Of a DNA stretch of 35,625 bases, positions 4,453-33,260 are shown piece after piece. This DNA is from a virus. Taxonomy: Duplodnaviria > Caudoviricetes. The position numbers were made by a program, and so were the translations under genes. Within the stretch, counting starts at the first letter, position 1. Each line of letters starts with the position of its first letter. The notes under the pieces are model-generated. The model did no database searches. It saw nothing but the letters and a program-made list of their open reading frames with translations, and was not told the origin of the DNA. The DNA is taken from the IMG/VR virus record IMGVR_UViG_3300035397_000191, positions 1-35,625 of that record; one strand, written 5' to 3'.

Positions 4453-4460
4453 TAATTTAA

Positions 4461-8647: not shown

Positions 8648-8649
8648 TT

Positions 8650-9579: not shown

Positions 9580-9581
9580 TT

Positions 9582-10151: not shown

Positions 10152-10162
10152 ATTTAAAAAAA

Positions 10163-10447: not shown

Positions 10448-10457
10448 TCATTAACTC

Positions 10458-10481
10458 GCACCGCTTGAAAAATAGCGGTGC
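10458..10481 (+). terminator. Stem-loop after ssb
   Basis: GCACCGCT-N8-AGCGGTGC; no U-tract. Confidence 0.45.
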
Positions 10482-10494
10482 AAAATAAAATAAT

Positions 10495-10755: not shown

Positions 10756-10868
10756 TGAAATATCCGAATTAGAACGCGAAAAAGAAGAGATTCTTGAAAA
10801 AATACGTATTACTCAAATTATGAGCATAGAAACAATCCCTTTTATTATAAAACTTAAAAATATATTAA

Positions 10869-11144
10869 ATGAAATTAAAAGAAATAATTAAGCGCAATTA
10901 TGAAGCTACTGTAAGACGAGGGCAAATAAGTATAAAAACATCTTTTGTAGATTTTTTCTTAAAAACTGAAGAAGAGTTTGATGAACTAAAAATGAGTACT
11001 TGGACATCAAATATATATCCATTTGACCCGAAAGAATCAATTGATATTATTTTAGTTCAATTTTCAATGCTTAATCATTATGGTTTTGATGTTGAAAAAC
11101 TTTTAATTGAAAAAGTATTATTTAACGAAAAAAGAGAAGATTAA
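10869..11144 (+). CDS. MazG-like NTP pyrophosphohydrolase
   Basis: KTEEEFDEL...ESIDII...KVLFNEKR all-alpha NTP-PPase pattern. Confidence 0.6.
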   Translation: MKLKEIIKRNYEATVRRGQISIKTSFVDFFLKTEEEFDELKMSTWTSNIYPFDPKESIDIILVQFSMLNHYGFDVEKLLIEKVLFNEKRED

Positions 11145-11145
11145 C

Positions 11146-11364
11146 ATGAAAACTAAATTACAATTTACTGACCCTAATTTTGTATTAATGTGTGCCTTAG
11201 ATTATGTTATTAATAGGAATAAATACGCACCAGATAGGTTAGCAAGTGAAATTGAAGTGCACTGGGCAGATATATCAACAGAGACAAAGGAATATATTAA
11301 GCGAGTAATAAAAAAGGAGTATTACTCTTGTAATCATGAATTTCATAAAATATTAGAGTTATGA
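11146..11364 (+). CDS. Hypothetical protein
   Basis: Start MKTKLQF follows the previous stop. Confidence 0.6.
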   Translation: MKTKLQFTDPNFVLMCALDYVINRNKYAPDRLASEIEVHWADISTETKEYIKRVIKKEYYSCNHEFHKILEL

Positions 11365-11536
11365 AAGCTACGAGAAAGAATGAATATGAGGAAAGGCGAA
11401 TAAGAAAAAATAAAGCTCAAGAGATATTCGACCGTAAAAAAGCTGAATATGAAGAGCGAAACAAAGACAATAAGCCTGAATTTGTAAAAGTTGCGAATGG
11501 ACTTTGGAAAGAAGTAAAAAATACATTAAAATAAGT

Positions 11537-11566
11537 TTTGTAATTGAATAATTATTAGTATTTTTG
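11537..11566 (+). promoter_or_regulatory. Promoter ahead of replication module
   Basis: TTTG-N18-TATTTTTG. Confidence 0.6.
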
Positions 11567-11581
11567 TAGTGTATTAGAAAG

Positions 11582-11675
11582 TCGAACTGCCATTCGATAA
11601 AAGAAATTGAGCGAAAGCTTACAATAAGGGATTAAAAGATGAAGTTGGCAGACTTCTGATTTTATTCCCTTTTTT
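11582..11675 (+). ncRNA. Structured leader RNA/attenuator with kissing loops
   Basis: Hairpin TCGAA-CTGCCA-TTCGA; hairpin with GAAA tetraloop; terminator hairpin GAAGT-TGGCAG-ACTTC extended to AAGGGA/TCCCTT plus T run; the two 6-nt loops are exactly complementary. Confidence 0.65.
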
Positions 11676-11716
11676 AATTTATAATTATGAAACAACAATA
11701 AAAAGGTTGCGTTTAT

Positions 11717-11949
11717 TTTTTAGGGTAAAAAAAGTTTTACCCCTAAAATTGAATATAAGACTTTAATATACAACGTTTTAATATACATATTCTTTTTACA
11801 TTTTTACCGTAAAAATAAAAAAATAAAAAAATAAAAAATAATGTAATTTAATTTTTTTTCTAATTTAATGGGTAAAACTTTTACCGTTAAAATATAATAC
11901 ATAATTATTTGAAATATAGATTAATAACTCTTTTACCATAGAGGTAAAA
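11717..11949. repeat. Putative replication origin with GGTAAAA/TTTTACC iterons
   Basis: 7 copies (11724, 11735, 11802, 11871, 11879, 11931, 11943), mostly as inverted pairs, around an A-rich tract; immediately before the primase-helicase. Confidence 0.65.
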
Positions 11950-11963
11950 ATAAATCAATAAAT

Positions 11964-14285
11964 ATGAACAAACCGACAATATCACGTTGCAACAAACTAT
12001 TAGACGATGGTTTTTCATTGTTGACAGTAGGAGATGGAAAAAAGCCAAATTTCACATGGAAAAAATCACAAACAAAGCCTTTGTCAAAAAATGATTTTAT
12101 AAAATTATATGAATATGCTGGTGGCGAATTTTATAAAGATAAAGACACAAATGAATTAATTGAGATAAAACCAACTTTAGGAATTGGAATAATAACAGGG
12201 TTTAATAATCTTGAAGTAATTGATATTGACTTGAAAGTTTTACCAACTTTGAAAGATCAACAAGATTTTTGGAATGAATATACAATGTACCTTCGGGAGT
12301 CAATCGATGACTTTGATAATAAATTTGTAATTTATAAAACTGTAAACAACGGATACCACATTATATATAAATGTGAAAAAATTGACAGAAATATAAAAAT
12401 TGCTAAACTTCAAGGATATAAAGAAGCTATTATTGAAAGTAGAGGTATTGGTGGATATGTTTGGATATATGATAATCAAGTAAGTAAGTTTGGTTATGAT
12501 AAAGTGCAAGAAATTTCAGAAAAAGACAGAGAGTTGCTTTGGGAAATATCAAGGTCTTTCAATTATGTTGAGCAACAGCCGGAACAACCAAAAGAGATAA
12601 TAAAAGAATACAGAAAAAATGAAAATGATATTACTCCTTGGGAAGATTTTAATAATAAAAACAGAATTTGGGACTTGATAAGCAACGAATTCACAATTGT
12701 AAAAAAGTTATCAAATAAGTTAATTATAAGAAGACACGATGCAACATCTGCAAGTAGTGGAAGTGTTTTTACAAAAGACAATAAAATGTTTTTGTTTTCT
12801 ACCGGAACACAATATCCACACGAGAAGCCTTTAAGCCCTTTTGATATTTATTCAATTAAAAATTACAACGGTGATTTTAAAAAAGCAGCTGCAGATTTAT
12901 ACTCGAAAAATTACGGAAGTAGAAATATTAAAAATAATCCTATAAAAATTGAAAACATAATAAAAGAAAAAACGGAAGATAAAATACCAAATAAAATAAT
13001 ATTTCCAATTGAAATATTTCCTGAAGATATTCAGTATTACATGAATATTTGTAATAAAACATTGAATAGCAATATTGATTATATGGGTTGCTCTTTTTTA
13101 TGGTTAATTTCTTTAATTGTAGGAAATTCAGTGAAAATTAAAGTAAAAAGCGGATGGATTGAAAGTGGCATTGTTTGGATTAGTTTAGTGGGTGAAGCAG
13201 GTATTGGGAAGACACCATCTATAAGCAGAATAATATATCCATTAGAAAAAATTAACAATTTAGAAATAAAAAAATATATTAATAATTCAAAGCTATATGA
13301 AGCATATAATAATTTGGATAAAAAAGAAAAGCAAAATAATGAGGAAGTAAAAAAACCAACAAAATCGCAAATTATAGTTTCAGATTTCACTATTGAAGCA
13401 ATAACAGACTTACATGAAGAGAATAAAAATTCTGTAGGAGTTTTTTGTGATGAATTAGCAGGCTGGTACAAAGATATGAATAAGTATAGAGCTGGTTCAG
13501 ACTTAGAATATTGGTTAAGTAGCTGGTCTAATAAGGGAATTGCACAAAACAGAAAAACAGCTAAAAGTACCTTTGTTGAAAGTCCTATTTTGCCTGTTTT
13601 AGGTGGCATCCAACCTAAAATATTAGTACAATTTTTTACAGAAGAGAATAAAGATAATGGATTTATTGATAGAATGCTTACAACTTATCCCGATGCAATA
13701 GTTGATAATTATAATGAAGAGGATTTAGGGGAAGATGTAATTGATTGGTATAATGATTATATTGTTAATTTTTACAATATGATAAAATTAACAATATTAA
13801 ATTATCATCCTGATGGTGAAATAAAATCAAAAATCGCTATATTATCAGATGGAGCCAAAAAACTATGGGTTGATATTTTTAACAAAATTACTTCGCATCA
13901 AAATTCAGATGAAGAGAATGAATACATGAAAAGTATGTATCCGAAACAAAAATCTTATATACCTAGATTTGCATTATTACTTAATACTTTATATTGGTAT
14001 GATGACAAAGATAATTATTCATTAAGTATAATTTCTGAAAAGGCAATGAAAAACGCAATTGAATTATCTACCTATTTTGTATTAATGGCTAAAAAACACA
14101 AAATTAGTTCGATAGAATATTCAGAAGTAAAAAAAGTAATAACACAAAATGAAAATAAAACTACAAAGGAAAAAATAATTGAAATATTAAATAAAGACCC
14201 GAATACAAAGGTTACATATATTTCAAGTATATTAGGTATTTCAAAAAAAACTGTTTATCAATATATTAATGAATTAAAAAAATAA
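11964..14285 (+). CDS. Bifunctional primase-polymerase fused to DUF3987-type P-loop helicase and C-terminal HTH
   Basis: VIDID, TVNNGYH, ESRGIGGY (PrimPol); GEAGIGKT Walker A, DFTIEA, DELAGW, GGIQP, NGFIDR; ISSILGISKKTVYQY HTH. Confidence 0.88.
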   Translation: MNKPTISRCNKLLDDGFSLLTVGDGKKPNFTWKKSQTKPLSKNDFIKLYEYAGGEFYKDKDTNELIEIKPTLGIGIITGFNNLEVIDIDLKVLPTLKDQQDFWNEYTMYLRESIDDFDNKFVIYKTVNNGYHIIYKCEKIDRNIKIAKLQGYKEAIIESRGIGGYVWIYDNQVSKFGYDKVQEISEKDRELLWEISRSFNYVEQQPEQPKEIIKEYRKNENDITPWEDFNNKNRIWDLISNEFTIVKKLSNKLIIRRHDATSASSGSVFTKDNKMFLFSTGTQYPHEKPLSPFDIYSIKNYNGDFKKAAADLYSKNYGSRNIKNNPIKIENIIKEKTEDKIPNKIIFPIEIFPEDIQYYMNICNKTLNSNIDYMGCSFLWLISLIVGNSVKIKVKSGWIESGIVWISLVGEAGIGKTPSISRIIYPLEKINNLEIKKYINNSKLYEAYNNLDKKEKQNNEEVKKPTKSQIIVSDFTIEAITDLHEENKNSVGVFCDELAGWYKDMNKYRAGSDLEYWLSSWSNKGIAQNRKTAKSTFVESPILPVLGGIQPKILVQFFTEENKDNGFIDRMLTTYPDAIVDNYNEEDLGEDVIDWYNDYIVNFYNMIKLTILNYHPDGEIKSKIAILSDGAKKLWVDIFNKITSHQNSDEENEYMKSMYPKQKSYIPRFALLLNTLYWYDDKDNYSLSIISEKAMKNAIELSTYFVLMAKKHKISSIEYSEVKKVITQNENKTTKEKIIEILNKDPNTKVTYISSILGISKKTVYQYINELKK

Positions 14286-14296
14286 ACATCTTAGTA

Positions 14297-14518
14297 ATGC
14301 AATCAGGCGACAAAATAACAATTAACCGGCAAGTATATGAAGCGTACTGTTTCGATATTGAAAAAAATAGCCTGAAAACAAATTGCAGCTCACCTTGTAT
14401 TATGTGCGATTTTGATGCTTTTAAAGATATGGAAATTTGCAAAACGGTTGATTGCATTAATGGAACTGACTTTTTATATTTGAAAAAATATTCAACACAA
14501 CTAAATTTATTTGATTAA
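14297..14518 (+). CDS. Cys-rich hypothetical protein
   Basis: ORF with CxxPCxxC; ends QLNLFD. Confidence 0.6.
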   Translation: MQSGDKITINRQVYEAYCFDIEKNSLKTNCSSPCIMCDFDAFKDMEICKTVDCINGTDFLYLKKYSTQLNLFD

Positions 14519-14542
14519 ATATTAACAATTAAAATAAAAAAA

Positions 14543-14863
14543 ATGAAAATACAAATAAAACCACTTTCAGTCAATGAAGTATTTCAAGGTAGAAGATTTA
14601 GAACAAAAAAATATGATTTGTATGAAATGCAAGTTAGATATTTATTGCAGAAAATTGAAATACCGAAAGGAAAATTATCAATAAAGTATGAAGTTGGCTA
14701 CAGTAATCAGTTATGTGATATTGACAACTTTATAAAACCGTTTCAGGATATTTTGCAAAAACACTATGAATTTAATGATAGAATGATTTATCATTTAGAT
14801 ATTACTAAGGTTATTGTTAAGAAAGGATTTGAATACATTGATTTTGTAATAAAAGAAATTTAA
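14543..14863 (+). CDS. rusA: RusA-like Holliday junction resolvase
   Basis: KPLSVN, DIDNFIKPFQDIL, FNDRMI. Confidence 0.85.
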   Translation: MKIQIKPLSVNEVFQGRRFRTKKYDLYEMQVRYLLQKIEIPKGKLSIKYEVGYSNQLCDIDNFIKPFQDILQKHYEFNDRMIYHLDITKVIVKKGFEYIDFVIKEI

Positions 14864-14879
14864 AAAAAAATTATAATAT

Positions 14880-15650
14880 ATGATACTTAGACGATTAGGA
14901 AATAAAAAAGCAATAATGCCTAAACTTATACAATACTTCCCCGAACATACTACTTGGATTGAACCTTTTTTTGGCAGTGGTTCGGTTTTCTTTTATAAGA
15001 AAAAAGCGAAATATAATTTTTTAAATGATATTGATTCAAATGTATATAACTGTTTTGATGTTATTATAAGGCATAAAGAAGAGCTTAAAACATATTTGGA
15101 GCTTATTCCTATACATATAGACTTTTGGAACGAATGCAAAACACGGACACCAGATAATAACATCGAAAAAGCAGTTTATTTTTTATTTTTATCAAATTTC
15201 GGATACATGGGTAAGCCTAATACATTGCGATACACACTTGATTATTCAAAAGATGTTCTACTTAAAAATTTAGAATTAACGTATAAAAATTTAGTAAGTT
15301 GCGAGAATCAATTTCTAAATTGTGATTTTCGAGAACTTTTTAAAAAAATATCATTAAAAAATGAAATAGGGATAAATAATTCATTCATATACTGCGACCC
15401 ACCGTACTTGAGTACGGATGATAACTACAGCCATTCTTTTACACAGCAGGATAGTATTGATTTATTCAATACGCTGCAAAATACTGGAATTAAATGGGCA
15501 ATGAGTGAGTTTGATAATCCGTTTATAATTCAACAAGCAAGAGAGAGAAATTTGAATATAATTATTATCGGTGAACGTAGAAATATTAAAAACATACGTA
15601 CTGAAATATTGATAACAAACTACAGAAAAAACGCAACACTTTTTGACTAA
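14880..15650 (+). CDS. Dam/D12-class N6-adenine DNA methyltransferase
   Basis: LGNKK, EPFFGSGSVFF, LNDID, YCDPPY, EILITNY. Confidence 0.92.
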   Translation: MILRRLGNKKAIMPKLIQYFPEHTTWIEPFFGSGSVFFYKKKAKYNFLNDIDSNVYNCFDVIIRHKEELKTYLELIPIHIDFWNECKTRTPDNNIEKAVYFLFLSNFGYMGKPNTLRYTLDYSKDVLLKNLELTYKNLVSCENQFLNCDFRELFKKISLKNEIGINNSFIYCDPPYLSTDDNYSHSFTQQDSIDLFNTLQNTGIKWAMSEFDNPFIIQQARERNLNIIIIGERRNIKNIRTEILITNYRKNATLFD

Positions 15651-15716
15651 AAGTTAAACATTGTTAATTCAATAAAAATAATTTGCTTTTTGTTTTCATA
15701 AACCAAATATACATAT

Positions 15717-15729
15717 TATCTTTGTATCA
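15717..15729 (+). promoter_or_regulatory. -7 promoter element upstream of accessory/cassette region
   Basis: TATCTTTGTATCA, identical to 7165-7177. Confidence 0.65.
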
Positions 15730-15779
15730 ACAAAAAAAGGATAACAAACAATTTAAAAATAAAAGCCATGAATTAGCAA

Positions 15780-15932
15780 ATGATTAAAACAGTACAAGAC
15801 AGAGTTAATGAAATGATTCAAAATGTAAAAATTCAAAATATCATGATTAGTTTTTCAAGTACAGAAGAAGCACAAGAATGGATTATAAAAGCAGCTATTG
15901 CAACATTAATAATACCAGCAAATGAAAGATAA
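15780..15932 (+). CDS. Hypothetical 50-aa protein
   Basis: Hand translation MIKTVQDRVNEMIQ...AAIATLIIPANER. Confidence 0.6.
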   Translation: MIKTVQDRVNEMIQNVKIQNIMISFSSTEEAQEWIIKAAIATLIIPANER

Positions 15933-16191
15933 AAAACTTCCAATACTCATCTTTATAGAAGCTATAAAGAGGAGAGAAATAGAAATATCATACAATACAA
16001 TTGATGGTATTTGCGTAGAAGGTGCAGAAAAATATATTGAGTATGAATTTAGCGAACTGATAGAATGCCATTCAGAAGGTATAAGATATATGGCACAAGA
16101 CACAATCGTTCCGCAGCCTGTTAGCATTGAATATATCAAAAATAAATATAATGGAAAAAAGAGGCGGAAAACGAACACCAAAAGAAGGTAA
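15922..16191 (+). CDS. Hypothetical protein
   Basis: ORF track; overlaps both neighbours. Confidence 0.6.
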   Translation: MKDKKLPILIFIEAIKRREIEISYNTIDGICVEGAEKYIEYEFSELIECHSEGIRYMAQDTIVPQPVSIEYIKNKYNGKKRRKTNTKRR

Positions 16192-16309
16192 AAAAATCGG
16201 CAGACCGAAAAAAGAGCCAACCAAAGTTATAAGTTTTAGAGTTCCTATAAAATATTCTGAATTGTTAAAAACAAAATTCAAAAACTATTTAGATAGTTTT
16301 GCTAAATAA
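16152..16309 (+). CDS. Small basic DNA-binding protein (RHH-like)
   Basis: MEKRGGKR...GRPKKEPTKVISFRVP; start approximate. Confidence 0.6.
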
Positions 16310-16442
16310 AAAACAGCCAATTCGCAAATTATTGCAATGTCCACTGACAATGCTATGATTATTATTTCGCAAAGTGCGCTAAAATAGAAATAAACGACAT
16401 AGTACTTAATAAAGATAATTAAGTCAGACTAGGCTGTTTTTT
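16308..16442 (+). other. Multi-stem structured element closed by an 11-bp inverted repeat
   Basis: AAAAAACAGCC/GGCTGTTTTTT enclosing CTGAC/GTCAG, CTATG/CATAG, TTATTTC/GAAATAA and TTAAT/ATTAA stems. Confidence 0.55.
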
Positions 16443-16468
16443 CTTTTTATTTAAATATTAAAATAATA

Positions 16469-16900
16469 ATGGACTTTAAAATAAAACATTTGCAACTTTA
16501 TTTAGCCGGACAATATAACTTGCTACATAAATCTTTAGGCGTTGAATTAGTCGAGTTAGGTTTTTTAAATTACAGAAAACTAACCGCTGAAAATTACGAA
16601 TTCTGGTGGTATGAAATTGAAGATAAATCAAAAATTGATAGAAAATCTTTTACATACAATTGGAGCGATTTAATTCCGACAAGGAAAATAGAAATGATAA
16701 AAAAATATATTGCATTTCATAATCAAAATGAAAGTATGTATAAACTAATCACAGCAATTTTAAACATAGAATCAGCAAGGTTTGACGGTATAGATATGCT
16801 TATAGGTAAATCAGAATTTGAAAAACAAATTGAGTTCTACTATGCCGGTCGACTTAAGAAACAACCTCGGCAAGCGCAACTTTTTTTTAATTATTCCTAA
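16469..16900 (+). CDS. Hypothetical protein heading the cassette array
   Basis: 143 aa; its TAA stop is the TAA of the first TAAC core. Confidence 0.75.
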   Translation: MDFKIKHLQLYLAGQYNLLHKSLGVELVELGFLNYRKLTAENYEFWWYEIEDKSKIDRKSFTYNWSDLIPTRKIEMIKKYIAFHNQNESMYKLITAILNIESARFDGIDMLIGKSEFEKQIEFYYAGRLKKQPRQAQLFFNYS

Positions 16901-16943
16901 CGACAAATGCTATTGGCGTAGGCGTGTGTTATGGGCATGCCGT
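16894..16943. repeat. attC-like site S1 (internally collapsed)
   Basis: TTCCTAAC...TAGGCGTGT-GTTATGGGCATGCCGT; only 34 bp from TAAC to GTTA, no full stem. Confidence 0.65.
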
Positions 16944-16974
16944 TTCTCTTATATTAATCTTAAAATTCAATAGT

Positions 16975-17076
16975 ATGTTAGAAATCTTTGTATCAATTTG
17001 TTCAGGTTTTATCGGATGGTTAATTGCTTATTCAATAATAAAATATATTCAAAAATGGAAACGAAACACGAAGTAA
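16975..17076 (+). CDS. Cassette A: 33-aa membrane peptide
   Basis: MLEIFVSICSGFIGWLIAYSIIKYIQKWKRNTK. Confidence 0.5.
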   Translation: MLEIFVSICSGFIGWLIAYSIIKYIQKWKRNTK

Positions 17077-17249
17077 AAATGATTGAAGTTGATTTTCTTT
17101 GTCCTAAATGTGAAAAAGGAAATTTAAGACCAAACGGAAATGTGTCTTAGTTGTCAGATCCTCAACAATTTCCTCATAAATGTAATAGTTGCGATTATGA
17201 GCAAACTTTTACTGTAAAATATCCAACTCTGTCTTATGTTATAGTATAG
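17055..17249 (+). pseudogene. Cassette A: zinc-ribbon protein with in-frame TAG
   Basis: METKHEV...CPKCEKGNLRPNGNVS*LSDPQQFPHKCNSCDY...; TAG at 17148-17150 lies between the two CxxC motifs. Confidence 0.7.
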
Positions 17250-17263
17250 CTGTCTTTTTTTTT

Positions 17264-17371
17264 ACGGCTGCGCATAACGACCGAAATATGGGCGCACGGC
17301 TGCGATAAACTTTCAACCTTGCACAAACTTTCTGCCGTGTATCCTTTTAGGTGCGTGTTATGTTTCAGGGC
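17264..17371. repeat. attC-like site S2
   Basis: ACGGCTGCGCATAAC ... CACGGC/GCCGTG stem ... GTTATGTTTCAGGGC. Confidence 0.8.
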
Positions 17372-17414
17372 TTTCTTATCTTCAAACAAAATATTAATCT
17401 TTAAACATAAAAAA

Positions 17415-17672
17415 ATGGAATTAATTGATTCACAAGAAAAAACACTTTTTTCTGATATTGAAAAAATCAAAAATCAGATAGCAGCATTTAAAGAACGTGG
17501 TTTTATGGGTTCTTATGGAAATTTTTTGCCATATACTGTAAAACAAGCTGATAAAATATCCGTGAAATTAAAAGAGGCAGGGATTAACTTTGAAATACAA
17601 AAGTCAACTAAAAAAGGATATATAAAGGTCGTATTTTCAGACCTGCTCGATTTGCCTGTTTTTTTGCCTTGA
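17415..17672 (+). CDS. Cassette B hypothetical protein
   Basis: Start MELIDSQEK; stop lies inside the end arm. Confidence 0.7.
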   Translation: MELIDSQEKTLFSDIEKIKNQIAAFKERGFMGSYGNFLPYTVKQADKISVKLKEAGINFEIQKSTKKGYIKVVFSDLLDLPVFLP

Positions 17673-17810
17673 ACATAACTGTTTGCATAAGATTAGTACG
17701 GGGATAGAAAGCGAAAACCTCCTGAACTACTCGAAACTTATTAAAATGTAATTCGCTCAAATTTGGCACTAAACCCCGTATTAATTTTATGCTGTGTTAT
17801 AGCCAGTTAT
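17666..17810. repeat. attC-like site S3
   Basis: GCCTTGAACATAAC; 19-bp stem GCATAAGATTAGTACGGGG/CCCCGTATTAATTTTATGC; GTTATAGCCAGTTAT. Confidence 0.88.
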
Positions 17811-17821
17811 TTATCAATATT

Positions 17822-18082
17822 ATGACAGAACAAGAAAAAACAATTGCAAAGATTTTTGACAAATCAGTTGAAGCATTAGGAATAATGACAAAATCATTAT
17901 GTGATGCAATCAAATCAACAAAAACAGAAAAGCGATATGTAATGTATCAAGACCAAAAATGCGAACTACTTGGAACAACTGATGCAGGTGGAACTTTAAA
18001 TACAGGGGGATTAGCATTTTGTATTATCATACCAGGCGGGAAAGTCAAAAATGTTCAAGATACGCACTGCACTTTCTTATAA
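17822..18082 (+). CDS. Cassette C hypothetical protein
   Basis: Start MTEQEK; stop lies inside the end arm. Confidence 0.7.
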   Translation: MTEQEKTIAKIFDKSVEALGIMTKSLCDAIKSTKTEKRYVMYQDQKCELLGTTDAGGTLNTGGLAFCIIIPGGKVKNVQDTHCTFL

Positions 18083-18198
18083 TTGGCTATAACGGACAAC
18101 TGCTATGATTATAAGCCCAATTACGGGTGCATAGCTTTCGTGAAGCGATGCAATTAATGCGGTCAGGTGAACATAGACGAGTTTTATGCGGTCATTGT
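18079..18198. repeat. attC-like site S4 (core G mutated to T)
   Basis: ATAATTGGCTATAAC; CTATG/CATAG and TGCAT/ATGCA stems; tTTATGCGGTCATTGT. Confidence 0.75.
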
Positions 18199-18254
18199 TG
18201 GTTTTTCTTCAAATTAAAATTGTATTATCTGTACTTAATAGATTAAAAGCAAAT

Positions 18255-18437
18255 ATGAATAGATTTCAAGTGTACAAAATTGTACGAAATAATAGAAAAA
18301 TGCACATTATGAGTTTATTTTCTGAAAATAGAATTACTGCAATTTCAGAATTTAAAAAAGAACATAAATGGGCTATAATTGGGTTTAAATTTTGGAACTA
18401 TTATATAACTGGGTTAATGCAAAATGGAAACTATTAA
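18255..18437 (+). CDS. Cassette D ORF1
   Basis: Start MNRFQVYK. Confidence 0.55.
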   Translation: MNRFQVYKIVRNNRKMHIMSLFSENRITAISEFKKEHKWAIIGFKFWNYYITGLMQNGNY

Positions 18438-18576
18438 ATTCAAAATTTGGAATGATTATAGTAAAAGTTTAATCCGTTGTGTTCGAGCTCACTATCCTAA
18501 AGATAAATATGTTGTTGTTAAAAAGAAAAAATATCATAAATATACTACTTACTACTTAAAATTAAAGACAAAATGA
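18424..18576 (+). CDS. Cassette D ORF2, basic 50 aa
   Basis: Hand translation METIKFKIWNDYSK...LKLKTK; ATGA overlap with next ORF. Confidence 0.55.
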   Translation: METIKFKIWNDYSKSLIRCVRAHYPKDKYVVVKKKKYHKYTTYYLKLKTK

Positions 18577-18782
18577 AAACAGAAAAAAAGTATTTAGAAA
18601 GAGAATTAGTGTCATTTGCTAATTATGTTTTATCAGAAGATAGAAAAGGAACTATCCACAAAGGTCATTCACAATCTATTGTTTATCATTCAGATATAGA
18701 AAATTGGAAAGTTTCCTGTAAAAATGCAGATAAACGACCAATTGAATTGTCAGAAAACGGCACTCCGCTGCGACCCTGTTAG
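18573..18782 (+). CDS. Cassette D ORF3
   Basis: ELVSFANYVLSEDRK...VYHSDIENWK. Confidence 0.7.
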   Translation: MKTEKKYLERELVSFANYVLSEDRKGTIHKGHSQSIVYHSDIENWKVSCKNADKRPIELSENGTPLRPC

Positions 18783-18790
18783 TTTTTTTT

Positions 18791-18858
18791 ACAATTCCGC
18801 ATAACGTATAGGCTATAGGCGGTATTCCAGCCTATAGGCGTGTGTTATGCGCTTGCCT
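18791..18858. repeat. attC-like site S5
   Basis: ACAATTCCGCATAAC; CTATAGGC/GCCTATAG stem; GTTATGCGCTTGCCT. Confidence 0.88.
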
Positions 18859-18886
18859 TTCTTTCTTAATTCTTAAAATTGTCAAA

Positions 18887-19036
18887 ATGAAAATAATAAC
18901 CAAAATAGAAAAATACAAAAATAGAAAAGTATATTACGCTTTCAACTTAATTGATATATGTTTTATAACCACTTTTCAAGTAACAGCTTTTAATATAACT
19001 ATCTGCAATATATTAATCCAATTTCATCATACTTAA
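18887..19036 (+). CDS. Cassette E ORF1, 49 aa
   Basis: Start MKIITKIEK; paralogous remnant at 21920-22027. Confidence 0.6.
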   Translation: MKIITKIEKYKNRKVYYAFNLIDICFITTFQVTAFNITICNILIQFHHT

Positions 19037-19047
19037 AAACGCTACAA

Positions 19048-19311
19048 ATGAATACAGAAGAAAAAATGTCATTAGAACAAAAACAGGATTTTATTATTGA
19101 AACTCTTTTTGAGTATTTCAAAAACGGAGTTGATATTATGTTTGAAAATCAAGCAAAATTTATGTCAATCGAAAACGATAAACGTCAACGTGAAAATATT
19201 GGACGCAAGTACAGATTCTTTAAACAAAAGTCGATTCTAACAGATTCTGAAAAACAAGAACTTGAATATGTTACTTTTCTTGTCGAAGTAGAAAAGGTTC
19301 TTGTTTTTTAG
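19048..19311 (+). CDS. Cassette E ORF2
   Basis: 87 aa; TAG stop lies in the end arm. Confidence 0.7.
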   Translation: MNTEEKMSLEQKQDFIIETLFEYFKNGVDIMFENQAKFMSIENDKRQRENIGRKYRFFKQKSILTDSEKQELEYVTFLVEVEKVLVF

Positions 19312-19457
19312 GCTTTCCAATAACGGCACATTTGTATGTGAAACAGGCGATTTACGAGAGTTTCGCCTTATAACTATACAAACGTTCGCACGAGTAAATA
19401 TAATTCTAATACGCACTCTACAGCCTGATTTACATACAATGTGTTATGCGCTTGCCT
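19310..19457. repeat. attC-like site S6
   Basis: AGGCTTTCCAATAAC; ACATTTGTATGTGAAACAGGC/GCCTGATTTACATACAATGT stem; GTTATGCGCTTGCCT. Confidence 0.88.
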
Positions 19458-19500
19458 TTCTTTCTTAATTCTTAAAATATTCACTTTAAAAACAAATTAT

Positions 19501-19695
19501 ATGAACTTAACACCAAAACAAAAAGCGAGCGAATTAGTAAAAAAGTACAAATAAATTTCTGGTTTTTTCAGATTTTCGAAGGCGTATGCTTTAATTACAG
19601 TTGATGAAATAATATCTGCATTAGTAGGCTTCAATACTGCTGAAGAATTTGGTAATTATTGGGAAAAGTTAAAAAACGAAATAGAAAAATTATAA
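19501..19695 (+). pseudogene. Cassette F ORF1 with in-frame TAA
   Basis: MNLTPKQKASELVKKYK*ISGFF...ALITVDEII...YWEKLKNEIEKL; TAA at 19552-19554; resembles 22203..22448. Confidence 0.72.
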
Positions 19696-19696
19696 T

Positions 19697-19999
19697 ATGC
19701 AAACATTAGAACAAGCTGCTCAAAAAAGAGCAAATAAATTTTCGGAAATAATTGTCGAAGGTACTGAAATACCATGCTTAATTGAAGATTTAAACTTATG
19801 GTCAAAAGAAGATTTTAAAAAAGGTTTTGAATTTGCAAATAAATGGTATTCTTCAAAACGAAAAAATACTCCAGTGAATAAAAATCTACTTTGTAAAGTT
19901 GAAGATTTCTACATTATTGGATTCTTTGACGGAAATAAATGGTTTAACGTTTCAAGTCGTGAAGTCGAAAACGTTACACACTGGCGTCTGATTTTTTAG
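19697..19999 (+). CDS. Cassette F ORF2, DUF551-like C-terminus
   Basis: MQTLEQAA...FKKGFEFA..W...P...VTHWR pattern. Confidence 0.7.
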   Translation: MQTLEQAAQKRANKFSEIIVEGTEIPCLIEDLNLWSKEDFKKGFEFANKWYSSKRKNTPVNKNLLCKVEDFYIIGFFDGNKWFNVSSREVENVTHWRLIF

Positions 20000-20138
20000 G
20001 CTTGCGCATAACGGTCGCTACTATACTGATTTAGTGGCTTTCACAAATGATGGATAGCGAACAAAACTTATTAATTACACTTCGGTAGCATAACCCCACG
20101 CCAATAAATAGGGATAGTTAGATGTTATGGTTTCGTTA
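19998..20138. repeat. attC-like site S7
   Basis: AGGCTTGCGCATAAC; ACTATACTGATTTAGTGGC/GCCAATAAATAGGGATAGT stem; GTTATGGTTTCGTTA. Confidence 0.85.
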
Positions 20139-20173
20139 TTTTCTTTCTTATTTAACATTTTTATTCTACTTAT

Positions 20174-20563
20174 ATGCAAATCGAAAAAAACGGATTACTA
20201 TTTGAAAAAGAAATTGCAAACTGTGAAAATGCAAATACTTGTAACGGATGCTATTTTCAAGACAATCCACACATTGAAGGCTGTAATCCTAATTTATGCA
20301 GCGATTACGAAGGTTGTGAAATTCAAGAAATGTATATTTTTAAATTCATATCTGGTAAAATCGGATCTTTTGATAATCAAAAAATTGAAAAGGAAATAGA
20401 AATTCAAGAAAACAAAATTACTGAACGAATGATTAAAGGTCGTTCAGTTGGCGGAACTGCTGGAGCTTTAAATCGTGATATTGATAATATGGGCAAAAAG
20501 TTGGATAACCTTAAAAGTCGGTTAAACCTTCAAACTTCGCTTTCTTTTTATCATGAACCATAA
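20174..20563 (+). CDS. Cassette G Cys-rich/coiled-coil protein
   Basis: CNGCYF motif; the stop TAA is the TAAC core. Confidence 0.72.
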   Translation: MQIEKNGLLFEKEIANCENANTCNGCYFQDNPHIEGCNPNLCSDYEGCEIQEMYIFKFISGKIGSFDNQKIEKEIEIQENKITERMIKGRSVGGTAGALNRDIDNMGKKLDNLKSRLNLQTSLSFYHEP

Positions 20564-20643
20564 CGACTTAGGCTATAATTTTCGGCTCTTTGATTTAGGA
20601 GCATTTGAGCCTAAATTATAGGATTGTGTTATTGGCATGCCGT
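20551..20643. repeat. attC-like site S8
   Basis: TCATGAACCATAAC; CTATAATTTTCGGCTC/GAGCCTAAATTATAG stem; GTTATTGGCATGCCGT. Confidence 0.88.
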
Positions 20644-20680
20644 TTCTTTCTTAAATTTTCATCTTAAAAATATAAACAAA

Positions 20681-20959
20681 ATGGAAAAAGTAAAATTTGA
20701 CGAAAAGTATTTAAACATTGATTTAATAAAATCTGATTACGAAAAGTATTGTAGTCAAATTGAAAATGTTAGAACAAACGCAGAATATGATTTGATTAAA
20801 GAAAAAGCAGACGTTTTATATTCTTTAATTTCTGCTTTCCTTTCAAAAACTGATATGGTTAATTTGTATGTTCAATATAAATATGACGTTTCAGTTTTGA
20901 CAGCCGAAATAACTAAACTAAAAAATCAAGTCAAAAAACTAAAAAATAAACATGCATAG
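20681..20959 (+). CDS. Cassette H coiled-coil protein
   Basis: Start MEKVKF. Confidence 0.7.
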   Translation: MEKVKFDEKYLNIDLIKSDYEKYCSQIENVRTNAEYDLIKEKADVLYSLISAFLSKTDMVNLYVQYKYDVSVLTAEITKLKNQVKKLKNKHA

Positions 20960-20967
20960 TTTTTTTT

Positions 20968-21115
20968 ACGGCTGCCCATAACGACCGAAAATATAGGCAA
21001 TAGCTGGATGCGGCGCTGAACACTTAAATACTATACTTTCGGTGGTGCGGGTGCAAATGCTTATAATACAGAAAAGGCAAGCTAATGACTATATTTAAGT
21101 GTTATCGGCTTTTGT
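20968..21115. repeat. attC-like site S9
   Basis: ACGGCTGCCCATAAC; AAATATAGGCAATAGCT/AGCTAATGACTATATTT stem; GTTATCGGCTTTTGT. Confidence 0.88.
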
Positions 21116-21153
21116 TTCTTTCTTTTCGAGTTATAATTTAATAATATAAAAAT

Positions 21154-21816
21154 ATGAATACAATTGAAAATTTAAAAAATTCGTTTGATTTAGAATTTGA
21201 ACGGACAAAACAAGACATGAATGAATTTTCGGGGTGTGCAACCGCAAGTAAATTATTCAAAGAATTATTAGGCGATAAAGTAAAAATACTTGATTCATTC
21301 GGAAGTGGGAAACTAACTGCTACATTCAAAAAAATACAATTAGAAGCAAGCGGAGTACGTGGATATAGACAGATAAGAATTAGTAATGCACCTCAACATA
21401 TTGTAGGCTTTGAATTAAATAGATATTCTAAGTTTGACGAGGTTGTAGTTGGTGATATTTATCTTGACATTGATTTTAAATGTATTGTTTTTAAAAATAT
21501 AGAAGTAAACGCTCCAATGGGTTCAACTCATGCAAAATTTTTTATAAAAGAAATTGGGTTTCCTGACTTATTTTATCAGAAAAAAGAGAAAGTATGGTCA
21601 CAACTTAGAACATCTTTTCATGGAACGTATGAAAGCAATTACATTGATTTAAATGATTGCAATAGATTAAAGATACCAACATATACTGATTTTACTCACA
21701 AACAACAAAGTAGGTCTATTGTTTTGGTTGTCGGAGTTGAGTTTTTTCAAAACGTTGGAGATAAATATTATCTTTTCCAAACAGGTAACGCAGCAAAAGT
21801 TCTGAACGTCTTTTAG
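21154..21816 (+). CDS. Cassette I: conserved Bacteroidota-type hypothetical protein
   Basis: FERTKQDMNEF...RGYR...VGFELN...LVVGVEFFQNVGDKYY resembles, from memory, a bacterial hypothetical family. Confidence 0.7.
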   Translation: MNTIENLKNSFDLEFERTKQDMNEFSGCATASKLFKELLGDKVKILDSFGSGKLTATFKKIQLEASGVRGYRQIRISNAPQHIVGFELNRYSKFDEVVVGDIYLDIDFKCIVFKNIEVNAPMGSTHAKFFIKEIGFPDLFYQKKEKVWSQLRTSFHGTYESNYIDLNDCNRLKIPTYTDFTHKQQSRSIVLVVGVEFFQNVGDKYYLFQTGNAAKVLNVF

Positions 21817-21834
21817 ATCCGAATGGCTTTTTCT

Positions 21835-21869
21835 ACAATTGCCGATAACAATATTATATACGAAGTACA
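21835..21869. repeat. Terminal non-hairpin site T1 (attI-like)
   Basis: Cassette end arm then ATAACAATATTATATACGAAGTACA (21845-21869), identical to 23269-23293. Confidence 0.75.
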
Positions 21870-21881
21870 AATATTTGAACC

Positions 21882-22027
21882 ATGATAATAGATACAGATA
21901 ACTACAATGCTCAAGAACTTTCAATTTAATAGATATATGCTTTATAAATACTTTTCATGTGATAAGTTTAAATATAACTATTTGTAATTTACTAATTAAA
22001 TTTCATTATACTAAAAAACGCTATTAA
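21882..22027 (+). pseudogene. Frameshifted paralog of 18887..19036
   Basis: FNLIDICFINTFHVISLNITICNLLIKFHYT frame has no in-frame start; the ATG at 21882 is in another frame. Confidence 0.6.
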
Positions 22028-22215
22028 TGAATACAGATATATTCACAAAAGTAGGATTTGTAATGGTTTTTCTTTTCGCAGGAATGGGAATAGCAACCTT
22101 TACATTATGGGTCATAAATAAGTTTTTGACTTACTTATTCAAAACTCTCAAACTTTGGAAAATACTAATAGATTTTATTTTCGATTATAAACAATTTAAA
22201 AAATGGAAAAAATGA
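22027..22215 (+). CDS. Small membrane protein (unit J)
   Basis: One hydrophobic helix. Confidence 0.65.
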   Translation: MNTDIFTKVGFVMVFLFAGMGIATFTLWVINKFLTYLFKTLKLWKILIDFIFDYKQFKKWKK

Positions 22216-22448
22216 TACACACATTAGCAATAAAGAGTATTTTTGAAAAAGAAAAGAAAAAGGTAAAAAATAAATATACACACTTTGGGCTAACTCCATT
22301 ACAAAAAACCGATAAATTGATTTTTTTGTTTGGAAAAGAAAAAGCTATAGAATATGTAAATGAAAGAATAAAATGGCATTTTGGTAGTAGTTTAAAGGAT
22401 AGATTAGATTACTGGAAAGAAGTTAAACAAAGAATAGAAAATTTATGA
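22203..22448 (+). CDS. Hypothetical protein (unit J)
   Basis: LTPLQK...YWKEVKQRIENL. Confidence 0.7.
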   Translation: MEKMIHTLAIKSIFEKEKKKVKNKYTHFGLTPLQKTDKLIFLFGKEKAIEYVNERIKWHFGSSLKDRLDYWKEVKQRIENL

Positions 22449-22666
22449 ACGCAACAATCAACGGAACTAATTATCATTCAGATTTGAAGTTCAACCAAGA
22501 AAAGGGAGAAATAACTATTGAAGTTATTCAATGTCGAAAAGTAATTTGTCAAAAAATTACTAAAATGGATTTGTCTTTGTCGCAATTGGAAATAGAATCC
22601 TTCAAACTTTTATATTCTAATCTTGTCGGCACGACTTCTAAACCCGATGAGCTAAGTCTTTTTTAG
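22445..22666 (+). CDS. Hypothetical protein (unit J)
   Basis: ATGA-coupled; TAG lies in the end arm. Confidence 0.65.
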   Translation: MNATINGTNYHSDLKFNQEKGEITIEVIQCRKVICQKITKMDLSLSQLEIESFKLLYSNLVGTTSKPDELSLF

Positions 22667-22736
22667 CCTTGCCCATAACGACGGTGTATGTGCATCCGTA
22701 TTTCGGTGCACATTACACATTGTTATAAGCAGTTTT
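22665..22736. repeat. attC-like site S10
   Basis: AGCCTTGCCCATAAC; GTGTATGTGCATCCG/CGGTGCACATTACAC stem; GTTATAAGCAGTTTT. Confidence 0.88.
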
Positions 22737-22778
22737 TTTTCTTATATTTCTTATTTTCAAACAATTAAATACATAAAA

Positions 22779-23240
22779 ATGAAAACTACAATTTTAGATT
22801 TACAACTTGAAACGATTCGAGAATTTCAAGAAAAATATCCCAAAAGCCATGTAGGTGGAAGTTTTGGCTTATTTCTTTTAGGTTATGATTTGAAACGTGA
22901 TATGTCAGAATCTGATTTAGATTTGATTTGTCCAGCTTTTGAAAAAGAACAGTATTTAATTGATAAAAATGATACGCTTGAAGAAACAAGTGATAGCAAT
23001 GACTTTGATTTTAAATACAGACGTTGGTTCGGGAATATTTATGTAAAACATGATATTTGCATAAATTCAGAGCAAGAATTTCAGATTATAGAGCGCAACG
23101 GTGAAAAATACAACGTTTCTTTATTTGAAAACATTATGAAATTCAAACGTGAATATGCTGATAAAGGTGTTTTTAAACATAAAGCTGATATTGAAGCAAT
23201 AGAAACTGGTGTTAGACCTGTCGAAAATTCGACGATATAG
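22779..23240 (+). CDS. Cassette K: Pol-beta-like nucleotidyltransferase-fold protein
   Basis: HVGGSFGL...SDLDL (GS...DxD), distal HD, KHKADI. Confidence 0.65.
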   Translation: MKTTILDLQLETIREFQEKYPKSHVGGSFGLFLLGYDLKRDMSESDLDLICPAFEKEQYLIDKNDTLEETSDSNDFDFKYRRWFGNIYVKHDICINSEQEFQIIERNGEKYNVSLFENIMKFKREYADKGVFKHKADIEAIETGVRPVENSTI

Positions 23241-23258
23241 ACTTCTATTTTGGTTTTT

Positions 23259-23293
23259 AAAATTGCTTATAACAATATTATATACGAAGTACA
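23259..23293. repeat. Terminal non-hairpin site T2 (attI-like)
   Basis: AAAATTGCTT + ATAACAATATTATATACGAAGTACA; marks the end of the array. Confidence 0.75.
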
Positions 23294-23314
23294 TTAAATT
23301 AAAAGAATTATACC

Positions 23315-23899
23315 CTAATTTTTTTTAATTTCGATAAATTGTAATCCTGTTATTGTAGTATTCGGATTAGCAGCTTTGGCAGTAACATTTGAAACTTTTA
23401 AACCGTACTTAATAAACAAAAAACGCTTGGTATATTCTGTATGTACAACAAGAAATAAACTATCTTTATTTGTCGTGCTACCGACTACATAATTATTCTT
23501 AATACATCCGTTTACTGTTGAATAATTGTCTTTAAAGCTAAAACAAGTATCTTTAGGAGTATATATAAGTTTGCTTTTGTATCTTGTTTCAATAACAGTA
23601 TTTACGATAGTTGTATTTAAAGCGTTTTTAAGCCTTATATTAAGTTGTTTGATAGTTTGTATATCTTCTTGTTTATATGCCTTATATTCGGCATTTGTGT
23701 AAGTAATCGAGCGTATTTTTGCTACTGATTGATTAAGACTATTTCGATACGTTTGTAATTTAGAGTTTAGCACTTCAATATTGCTTGCTTTAAGCTTTAT
23801 TTCTTTAGCTTGTTTTACTGTTTTCGATATTAATACAGAGGTAGTGATTAATGATACCGATAATAATACGATTAGAATTATGTTAAAATAATTTTTCAT
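23315..23899 (-). CDS. Spanin-like lysis accessory protein (putative)
   Basis: N-terminal TM helix, coiled coil, DSL...KRFLFIKYG...NPNT; own promoter element CAAATATA at 23925-23932. Confidence 0.6.
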   Translation of the reverse strand: MKNYFNIILIVLLSVSLITTSVLISKTVKQAKEIKLKASNIEVLNSKLQTYRNSLNQSVAKIRSITYTNAEYKAYKQEDIQTIKQLNIRLKNALNTTIVNTVIETRYKSKLIYTPKDTCFSFKDNYSTVNGCIKNNYVVGSTTNKDSLFLVVHTEYTKRFLFIKYGLKVSNVTAKAANPNTTITGLQFIEIKKN

Positions 23900-24012
23900 G
23901 ATACATATTTTAAAAATTATTTCGCAAATATAAGAAAAATATGTTTTTAAACATAAAAAATAATAGTATTTTGTTTTAAAAAATAGCTTTACTTTGCATA
24001 AAAATTATAACA

Positions 24013-24219
24013 ATGACAATTAAAGACTTAAAAAAACTAATTGAAAATCTTCCTGACGATATAAAAGTAGGAGGTTGTGGGCATTTTGGTGATTTTTTAG
24101 AATGTTACAGTGCTAGTGTACAATCTTTTAGTAAGCTTTCATATATAGATATAGTTACAAATGTAATTAAAGATACAAAAGAAGATACAAAAGAAGATAT
24201 GTTTTGTATTTTGTATTGA
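24013..24219 (+). CDS. Hypothetical protein
   Basis: MTIKDLKKLIENLPDD is a common phage N-terminus. Confidence 0.7.
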   Translation: MTIKDLKKLIENLPDDIKVGGCGHFGDFLECYSASVQSFSKLSYIDIVTNVIKDTKEDTKEDMFCILY

Positions 24220-24267
24220 TATTGAGGATAAAGGAAAATCACCTTATTAAGTTAAAAACTAAAATAT

Positions 24268-24624
24268 ATGCAACAAAAAGGAATTAAAATTCAAGAGTTC
24301 GATAAATTAAGAATTGGTAACTATGTAATATCAGAACTATATCAACAAGATAAGTTATATACTACTGTAGATTCTGATTTTTTAGAAAAAGTCGATTTTG
24401 TTAAATATTACGGTATAGTATTAACAGAGGAGTTAATTCTGAAATTAGGTTTTTCAAAAACAAAAACAAAAAACATATTTTATAAAGATAAATTTGTTAT
24501 ATATATGGCATTAGATGTTTTTTTAGTTTGGTATAATTCTGTATCTTTTCTTGATATTTTTCGTTATGTTCACGAGCTACAAAATATATACTTTTCAAGG
24601 CTTAATGAAGAGTTAATTTTTTAA
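24268..24624 (+). CDS. Hypothetical phage protein (YopX-like)
   Basis: LRIGNYV...IVLTEELILKLGF...YVHELQNIYF. Confidence 0.7.
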   Translation: MQQKGIKIQEFDKLRIGNYVISELYQQDKLYTTVDSDFLEKVDFVKYYGIVLTEELILKLGFSKTKTKNIFYKDKFVIYMALDVFLVWYNSVSFLDIFRYVHELQNIYFSRLNEELIF

Positions 24625-33223: not shown

Positions 33224-33260
33224 AATTAAGTATATTTTTAATTGTTATTTTATTATTTTA

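Follow-up and report, generated by a model that had tools for sequence, protein, structure and literature searches.

A recombinase-less, integron-like array of gene cassettes in a Bacteroidota phage

Sites and units of the array

The subject of this report is a row of small genes and hairpins at 16897-23293 of IMGVR_UViG_3300035397_000191, a viral contig from IMG/VR. The window referred to throughout is that entire contig, 35625 bases long, whose completeness is rated at about 54%. The array comprises nine complete sites, one site with a decayed right core and two half-sites devoid of a hairpin (S1-S12), and all its units are co-oriented on the + strand. The source is a Bacteroidota phage with an integron-like array. 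We argue below that the units are probably cut and rejoined at a 5-base core, ATAAC, by a tyrosine recombinase that the host supplies.

A complete site reads, in order, stop codon, run of T, a 9-10 nt arm (x'), (C)ATAAC, G(AC) and a hairpin of variable sequence and size, followed by (GT)GTTAT, a second 9-10 nt arm (x), a T-rich leader and an ATG 20-50 nt further on. The cores are of the attC type, (T/C)AAC being present in every hairpin site and GTTA in all of them except S4; the interiors differ. ATAACG occurs nine times in the window, eight of them within 17274-22675, and the longer pattern CATAACG-N(33-143)-GTGTTAT is found four times on the forward strand but neither on the reverse strand nor in the backwards control. 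RNA minimum free energies (MFE) of the nine complete sites range from -6.8 to -37.2 kcal/mol. A raw scan for TAAC..GTTA hairpins is too noisy in AT-rich DNA, with 14 vs 20 candidates on the two strands. The sites are the following.

S1, 16897-16935, + strand: short ("collapsed") site, CCTAAC-G...GTGTTATGG; its core holds the stop of open reading frame (ORF) 16469-16900
S2, 17272-17364, + strand: complete; CATAACG, hairpin, GTGTTATG
S3, 17673-17803, + strand: complete, 131 nt; hairpin type ..ATAAGATTAGTACGGG..
S4, 18087-18199, + strand: left core intact (ATAACGG), right core decayed (TTTTATGCGG, TTTTAT at 18182)
S5, 18799-18851, + strand: complete, 53 nt
S6, 19318-19450, + strand: complete, 133 nt
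S7, 20006-20131, + strand: complete, 126 nt
S8, 20558-20635, + strand: complete, 78 nt; its core holds the stop of ORF 20174-20563
S9, 20976-21108, + strand: complete, 133 nt
S10, 21843-21869, + strand: half-site, a cassette arm and ATAAC fused to the 25-nt AATATTATATACGAAGTACA..; neither hairpin nor right core
S11, 22673-22729, + strand: complete, 57 nt
S12, 23267-23293, + strand: terminal half-site at the array end, its 25 nt identical to those of S10
Possible left boundary, 15697-15704, + strand: core-like ATAAAC, to which (at 15704) one contig of run X2 joins the right core of S8 (GTGTTAT)

The first-pass annotation of this DNA had described repeated TAAC-hairpin-GTTAT elements, and these are present where it placed them, as seen from the sequence and from the ATAACG and pattern counts. 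It had also assigned stop codons to the TAAC arm. Those at 16900 and 20563 do lie inside the core; the others (17672, 18082, 19311, 19999 and 22666) fall in the arm just before it. Its statement that the hairpins are unrelated in sequence is mostly right, except that S2 and S9 have a common left arm and a common stretch of about 20 bases at the start of the interior, and that the right flanks (right arm plus leader) of S5 and S6 are a 56-nt repeat. Elsewhere in IMG/VR the right-flank pattern GTGTTATKSGCWTGCCKTTTCT is not matched. At S1, the hairpin interior is longer in a contig of run X5, where it is joined at 16919 as a loose end. The hairpin type of S3 recurs in other phages and in flavobacterial arrays.

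S12 is a candidate primary (attI-like) insertion site. The unit adjoining it, unit 11, is absent from contigs of four runs and is the most often polymorphic unit. The 25-nt sequence of S10 and S12 may resemble one arm of a lox-type site.

Matches to a sigma-70-like promoter are not enriched (46 found, 53.8 expected), and the Bacteroidota motif TAnnTTTG was not seen by eye in the conserved leaders. The Rfam search proposed in the first-pass annotation, with Flavo-1 included, gave no match for the whole window at E<=1; at E<=10 the stretch 16800-23400 returned four matches (snoRNA, miRNA, Staphylococcus sRNA), none of them to Flavo-1 and each scoring far under its gathering threshold. A self-cleaving ribozyme or a riboswitch was considered and rejected, there being no Rfam match.

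Between the sites, a unit has the form G-hairpin-GTGTTAT-x-leader-ORF(s)-x'-ATAAC, in which x and x' (9-10 nt each) are complementary to each other and specific to the unit.

Unit 1, 16928-17279, + strand: arms GTTATGGGCATGCCGT / ACGGCTGCGCATAAC; CxxC..CxxC ORF 17055-17249
Unit 2, 17357-17680, + strand: ORF 17416-17672; own arms
Unit 3, 17796-18094, + strand: ORF 17823-18082; arms GTTATAGCCAGTTAT / ATAATTGGCTATAAC, with G opposite T at position 11
Unit 4, 18183-18806, + strand: ORFs 18256-18437, 18424-18576 and 18573-18782
Unit 5, 18844-19325, + strand: ORFs 18878-19036 and 19048-19311; arms mismatched (composite); holds a copy of repeat D1
Unit 6, 19443-20013, + strand: ORF 19697-19999; arms GTTATGCGCTTGCCT / AGGCTTGCGCATAAC
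Unit 7, 20124-20565, + strand: ORF 20174-20563
Unit 8, 20628-20983, + strand: ORF 20682-20959
Unit 9, 21101-21850, + strand: ORF 21154-21816 (220 aa)
S10-S11 block, 21870-22680, + strand: ORFs 22027-22215, 22203-22448 and 22445-22666; starts without a right core; holds the second copy of D1
Unit 11, 22722-23274, + strand: ORF 22779-23240 (phrog_33731); arms GTTATAAGCAGTTTT / AAAATTGCTTATAAC

Together with the cores, the arms of each unit constitute an inverted repeat of 13-15 nt (about 14). The right arm of one site does not pair with the left arm of the same site but, across the gene, with the left arm of the next, a relation that the first-pass annotation had overlooked. When all partners are compared, the correct one is the best in eight of ten units and the second best in one, owing to the near-identity of the S2 and S9 left arms; unit 5 fails. 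The summed score of these brackets is 63.5, against 13.5 for pairing within each hairpin site and a mean of 26.6 (sd 6.1) for permuted partners, 1 of 100000 permutations reaching 63.5. A scan of the raw sequence for such brackets is too noisy (55 brackets vs 42-70 in shuffles).

If the two ends of each unit are joined by script, the hairpin gains an outer stem of 14 bp, and the summed DNA MFE on the + strand falls from -144.0 kcal/mol in the array to -201.0 kcal/mol in the reconstituted sites. The + strand folds better than the - strand in seven of these ten. The brackets and the better fold are the footprint expected if each unit had once been circular, its long hairpin site being opened at the core upon insertion. 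The arms of all ten window units are irregular at position 7 or within positions 9-11, with G-T, T-T or a bulged T. Compared with the extrahelical bases that set strand choice in integrons, the fixed non-Watson-Crick position at 10-11 of the arm sits in the outer stem and not in an L box. A miniature inverted-repeat transposable element, or a transposon with terminal inverted repeats, was rejected as a description of the units, since the arms differ in every one of them.

Two side observations concern individual units. ORF 17055-17249 of unit 1 is zinc-ribbon-like and has an in-frame TAG at 17148-17150; it may be a broken gene or be subject to read-through. D1 is a 120-nt direct repeat (83% identity) at 18939-19058 and 21918-22037. 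Its copies span the upstream sequence and opening codons of ORF 19048 and ORF 22027, respectively, and belong to the two blocks in which the bracket rule fails.

Variation at the cores in natural populations

The array region is present in 12 public runs, mostly of microbial-mat metagenomes, from eight studies. Contigs from eight of the runs were compared with 15500-24500 of the window and gave 17 distinct joints, of which ten are at cores, eight at the left core (ATAAC) and two at the right. The joints at cores are listed with the runs in which they occur and the number of letters that the two sides share.

22674>23269, left core: X2, X4, X5, X6; 5 letters; unit 11 missing
20977>21845, left core: X2, X5; 5 letters; unit 9 and the S9 hairpin missing
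18085>18799, left core: X3, X5; 2 letters; S4 and unit 4 missing
20006>20559, left core: X6; 7 letters; unit 7 and the S7 hairpin missing
23268>20978, left core: X3; 5 letters; unit 11 ahead of S9, a reordering
20976>17273, left core: X6; 9 letters
20002>17269, left core: X5; 11 letters
23268>21845, left core: X4; 25 letters
18840>19440, right core: X2, X3, X5; 39 letters; unit 5 skipped
20632>15704, right core: X2; 0 letters; a single contig

By record coordinates, the two sides are directly adjacent in 18840>19440, 23268>20978, 18085>18799 and 22674>23269. Forms with and without unit 11 coexist in run X2. Loose ends at 17676 (X5) and 19320 (X2) are places where a different upstream sequence stops exactly at the left core.

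Because most of the core breakpoints lie at the left core, the moving unit, in the phage orientation, consists of hairpin, right core, gene and left core. The first-pass annotation had assumed exchange at a GTTAT core, and in this it is contradicted: the unit of hairpin plus gene is cut at ATAAC. Its proposal that related phages should differ in single units, with breakpoints at the cores, agrees with the missing and reordered units in the eight other runs. More generally, the idea of site-specific gene capture and shuffling gains support from the core joints, from the Rfam result and from the flavobacterial arrays described below, which lie beside a tyrosine recombinase. Slippage across a stem that closes each gene was rejected, as the deletions it predicts would run from a right core to a left one, unlike those observed.

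Related arrays in bacteria and phages, and the phage gene context

A search of Bacteroidota hosts, as the first-pass annotation had recommended, revealed the same site family as arrays beside a tyrosine recombinase gene in Flavobacteriaceae. The chromosome of Hwangdonia seohaensis, a member of this family, carries the same hairpin type with cores reading GTTG; one array stretch has 22 BLAST matches there, grouped in several arrays. In one of these, L222, seven sites spaced about 600 bp apart abut the gene for a 376-aa tyrosine recombinase. The whole phage array, compared by BLAST with five flavobacterial genomes, gave just weak matches to the T-rich leader.

The best NCBIfam score of the 376-aa protein is with archaeal XerA (197.6, cut-off 220), followed by the integron integrase family TIGR02249 (196.2, in two pieces; cut-off 265), then XerD and XerC, and XerA proteins are its top matches among solved structures. 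The integron integrase VchIntIA aligns in two blocks, between which the flavobacterial protein has 26 residues where IntI has 69, so that the integron-specific insertion is missing. About 105 residues are added at the N-terminus. As judged from its sequence, then, the bacterial array enzyme is Xer-like and not an integron integrase. Of 151 sampled Flavobacteriaceae genomes, 90 encode homologs (E<=1e-60), many of which lie 150-500 nt from a contig end. At least 15 of the homologs are located 70-510 nt from a contig start, always with the 3' end towards the break, which suggests that repeat arrays routinely break flavobacterial assemblies.

In 18 of 20 recombinase loci, sites are found on the 3' side of the gene, 90 in one orientation and 3 in the other; the two site-less loci have less than 250 nt of sequence on that side. 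The bacterial units are bracketed as well, with a summed score of 352.5 vs 141.5 (sd 9.6) for shuffled partners. In their arms GTTR is followed by six bases peculiar to the cassette (59 distinct words of 68), position 11 has G facing T in 54 of 68 cases, and pairing ceases after three further pairs. Relative to the polarity AACG...TGTT of the site, the longest ORF is antisense in 63 of 68 bacterial segments, whereas all phage ORFs are sense. The phage cassette is thus a bacterial cassette with its gene on the other strand. Viewed along the gene strand, a bacterial cassette is a gene with a hairpin downstream, exchanged at the right core as in integrons.

Two Hwangdonia arrays (L222 at 15989-16022; L102 on the reverse strand at about 4735) end in the same short element devoid of a hairpin (TAACGATGTATTTTTAATAAAATTTCCAYTGTTA). 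As it lies beside the recombinase gene in L222, this end element may serve as the primary site in bacteria. Full-text literature searches, subscription journals not covered, yielded no account of a Xer-like cassette system in flavobacteria. An integron survey mentions, for Bacteroidetes, In0 elements and one complete integron only (PMC9024848).

Among GenBank phages, blastn of the region matches a single record, OP947161, and there only the S3 site. The S3 hairpin, right arm and leader are kept in OP947161 and in seven IMG/VR contigs, and the sequence to the left of AAC is different in each, a pattern that fits a moving unit made of hairpin, right core, gene and left core. Positions 6118-6345 of OP947161.1 and 17790-18110 of the window have in common the cassette 5' end (about 30 nt, to the ATG) and the 3' end (TAATTGGCTATAACG). 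In OP947161 and in unit 3 of the window, the same arms surround unrelated ORFs (56 and 85 aa). In the S3-family loci L086-L089 the bracket partners are weak or unclear. Relatives of the flavobacterial recombinase with 25-58% identity are encoded at 56 IMG/VR loci, one of which (L276) has two sites just downstream.

A phage example of this site family is already in print, in Qi et al. 2023 (PMC9892861), as a cluster of attC sites lacking an integron integrase (CALIN). That paper reports 17 CALINs in phages, including two attC sites predicted in Polaribacter phage P12002L by HattCI and by HattCI plus Infernal. IntI1 recombined attC2 at G|TT in Escherichia coli, and attC1 was the sole site of six that it failed to recombine (Qi et al. 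2023, PMC9892861). In the P12002L genome (NC_028924) we find at least five hairpin sites of the present family with cassette-specific arms, as well as two copies of a terminal half-site; the complete genome has no annotated integrase. The attC1 site, at 29974-30077, is a typical hairpin member of the family, and attC2 matches the reverse complement of the region with the terminal half-site. Both phages have two copies of the sequence found after the last core (window 21843-21869 and 23267-23293; NC_028924 29166-29247 and 37200-37304), each of them fused to a different cassette arm.

The rest of the window looks like a tailed phage, with a GC content of 24-40% along its length. The array forms the later part, made of small unnamed ORFs, of a single long + strand operon (7211-23240). 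The named genes around it are these.

1343-2656, - strand: capsid
3190-4473, - strand: portal
5299-6675, - strand: large terminase
8650-9579, + strand: RecE-like exonuclease (profile scan)
11964-14285, + strand: DUF3987 primase-helicase (profile scan)
14543-14863, + strand: RusA-like resolvase (profile scan)
14880-15650, + strand: Dam-type methyltransferase, just ahead of the array
23315-23899: DUF6549 gene, 3' of the array
33324-35624, - strand: tape-measure-like protein

Pfam and PHROGs scans detect no tyrosine or serine recombinase among the 67 window ORFs, nor any named match for the array ORFs, except that of ORF 22779-23240 to phrog_33731, whose function is not known. That ORF has no close relative in IMG/VR, and the 220-aa protein of unit 9 resembles unnamed Bacteroidota protein clusters only. 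The primase-helicase is shared (at up to 83% identity) with 80 IMG/VR loci, in which none of the 18 array ORFs has a tblastn match.

Three observations on the surroundings of the array may be added. A 26-nt repeat at 2611-2636, 4455-4480 and 33255-33280 lies upstream of three - strand gene blocks; its motif ends in TATATATTTGCAAAAAA and its reverse complement contains TATATATTTG, which we take to be a Bacteroidota promoter of the -7 type. At 16305-16445, just upstream of ORF 16469-16900, is a non-coding stretch of about 110 nt bounded by ACAGCC...GGCTGT and followed by a T-run, which by eye falls outside the AAC/GTT site family. Finally, contigs of other runs skip 15726-16186, 21925-23296 and 23287-23910, away from the cores; one of these skips deletes most of the DUF6549 gene.

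Interpretation and comparison with known systems

We consider, with a probability of roughly 0.7, that the window contains a recombinase-less integron-like array, whose units are cut and rejoined at the ATAAC core by a Xer-like tyrosine recombinase from the host. One strand of the DNA would fold, namely that reading AACG...TGTT, which in the phage is the coding strand. The outer stem, the unpaired G/TG spacer and the hairpin base would then mimic a two-armed Xer-type site, next to the AAC of which the recombinase would cut. A folded site might exchange strands with a second folded site or with the terminal half-site S12. In this way units would be released in circular form and then inserted at another site or at S12, the phage borrowing the host enzyme during infection. 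The flipped gene orientation would let the phage cassettes be read along the long + strand operon: with the genes on the other cassette strand, the hairpin precedes the gene and reading follows that of the operon.

In a wider version, to which we give slightly better than an even chance, most Flavobacteriaceae run a second, unrecognised kind of integron, with a Xer-like recombinase devoid of the IntI insertion and with folded sites whose 14-nt arms are specific to the cassette, and phages with flipped, recombinase-less arrays hijack the host enzyme and trade accessory genes among themselves.

A number of observations weigh against these proposals. The enzyme is a candidate, assigned to the sites by genomic linkage. 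The joints come from contigs assembled from k-mers and are observational, with neither raw reads nor an assay behind them; in several the shorter side has just 23-30 letters, a range prone to error, and for most the comparison does not give the stretch between the two sides. Seven joints are off the cores (15726/15733>16186, 15738>18564, 21925>23296, 23287>23910, 16947>17388 and 21126>21192), which means that recombination of other kinds acts on the region too. Homologous exchange explains the joints with 25 and 39 shared letters equally well, and the RecE-like exonuclease and RusA-like resolvase could drive exchange based on homology. The same arms around an unrelated ORF in OP947161 are not predicted by a model in which cutting occurs purely at the core. 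Unit 5 does not obey the bracket rule, its 5' end being a duplicate of that of unit 6. The observed strand preference in folding (7 of 10) is weak. Finally, viral contigs with related recombinases show no clear enrichment of sites, as counted with a hairpin detector that recovers four of ten window hairpin sites and gives about 2 background hits on each strand of 35 kb.

The hairpins could instead be the punctuation of a polycistronic RNA, i.e. leaky terminators or processing and stabilising stems, possibly with long-range 5'-3' stems around each gene, the variation arising by homologous recombination between modules. This would suit their intergenic position, in the same orientation as the genes and with a T-rich tract after them, and the G-T (G-U) pairs that favour the coding strand. 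Of the five terminator-like matches in 15500-24500, three are in the right halves of S1, S2 and S5, but such matches are not enriched (2.9 expected), nor are sigma-70-like promoters, and no Rfam family is matched. Modular exchange of this sort has a precedent in the promoter-early stem-loop (PeSL) modules of T4-type phages (PMC2839356, PMC4122927), the phage encodes RecE-like and RusA-like recombination proteins, and two joints share 25-39 letters. However, seven of the eight left-core joints share 2-11 letters (the eighth, 25), too few for homologous exchange. The sites are antisense to the cassette genes in bacteria (63 of 68 segments) and sense in the phage, which a role in the sense of the mRNA does not predict, and 18 of 20 loci link the family to a tyrosine recombinase gene. 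We regard RNA punctuation as an unlikely explanation of the whole array; a secondary role in RNA could coexist with recombination at the cores by a host enzyme.

Two other alternatives retain recombination and change its agent. As the window represents about 54% of the genome, a recombinase of the phage's own might be encoded on the missing part and run the system autonomously, an idea favoured by the 56 IMG/VR loci with recombinase relatives and by L276 among them, with its two downstream sites. None is encoded, however, in the 35.6 kb that cover the replication/recombination module and both array flanks, the position held by the recombinase in bacteria is occupied by the DUF6549 gene, the complete P12002L genome has the same sites with no annotated integrase, and sites are not clearly enriched in recombinase-bearing viral contigs; autonomy thus appears improbable. 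It is also quite improbable that the array is an ordinary CALIN, with classical attC sites captured by the phage and served by a canonical IntI of the host. The cores do fit the AAC/GTT rule and the lengths fit attC, and two attC sites were predicted in P12002L by HattCI/Infernal, of which IntI1 recombined attC2. Yet in the same study it is attC1, the typical family member, that IntI1 did not recombine, alone among the six sites (Qi et al. 2023). The bacterial recombinase stays below the integron-integrase cut-off (196.2 vs 265), lacks the insertion, has XerA proteins as its nearest solved relatives and is co-directional with the cassettes, not divergent; and the complementary arms measure 14 nt, not 7, with the fixed G-T.

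Phage mosaicism is usually ascribed to homologous or illegitimate recombination. Here the movement of single phage genes appears to be site-specific and integron-like, with exchange at a stretch of 5 bases, and the likely enzyme is the host protein found in 90 of the 151 sampled Flavobacteriaceae genomes. If this holds, phage mosaicism would have a site-specific route open to observation in natural mat populations. The small accessory genes of phages, whose function is not known, would then make up a large pool of mobile cassettes, and the integron concept would widen beyond IntI. The near-absence of Bacteroidetes from integron surveys (PMC9024848) could find its explanation here as well.

In PeSL modules, exchange takes place by homologous recombination between longer promoter/terminator repeats. 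The modules resemble the present array in that repeated intergenic stem-loops are reported to bound small variable ORFs, in a plastic part of the phage genome, and to mediate modular shuffling (Arbiol et al. 2010, PMC2839356; Comeau et al. 2014, PMC4122927). Unlike them, the window has joints that share mostly 5-9 letters, arms that are specific to each cassette and sites that in bacteria are tied to a tyrosine recombinase. As for an early promoter, no consensus emerges in the window (sigma-70-like matches 46 vs 53.8; no TAnnTTTG by eye).

The closest published relative is the CALIN of P12002L, which has the same site family, the same brackets, duplicated terminal half-sites and no annotated integrase. 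The P12002L paper predicts just two sites, in divergent directions, treats them as classical attC and gives no account of cassette-specific 14-nt arms, a Xer-like host recombinase or population variation (PMC9892861). The window, by comparison, offers 12 sites and direct evidence of gain, loss and reordering of units.

The likeness to integrons, and particularly to sedentary chromosomal ones, is extensive. Co-oriented small cassettes stand in rows, split by imperfect palindromes of about 40-135 nt, in which conservation extends to structure and to the AAC/GTT triplets but not to sequence. Each cassette starts with a stretch complementary to that at its own end, as is characteristic of a circular intermediate, over 14 nt here vs 7 in integrons. 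The exchange point lies within the core (10 of the 17 joints, as observed in contigs), and the bacterial arrays lie beside a tyrosine recombinase of the Xer/IntI branch. With respect to attI and the cassette promoter (Pc), S12, duplicated at S10, is the candidate primary site, and the sigma-70-like scan identified no promoter. Unlike in integrons, the arms run 10 nt past the core, with a fixed G-T at position 11; the phage genes lie on the other cassette strand, so that the hairpin stands ahead of the gene and exchange is at the left core; and the bacterial enzyme, whose gene is co-directional with the cassettes, is without the IntI-specific insertion and carries about 105 additional residues at the N-terminus. 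In place of the IntI of a complete integron there is no recombinase among the 67 window ORFs, and in bacteria an enzyme that scores 196.2 against a cut-off of 265. The array is therefore integron-like, and it is by its recombinase that it stands outside the integron family.

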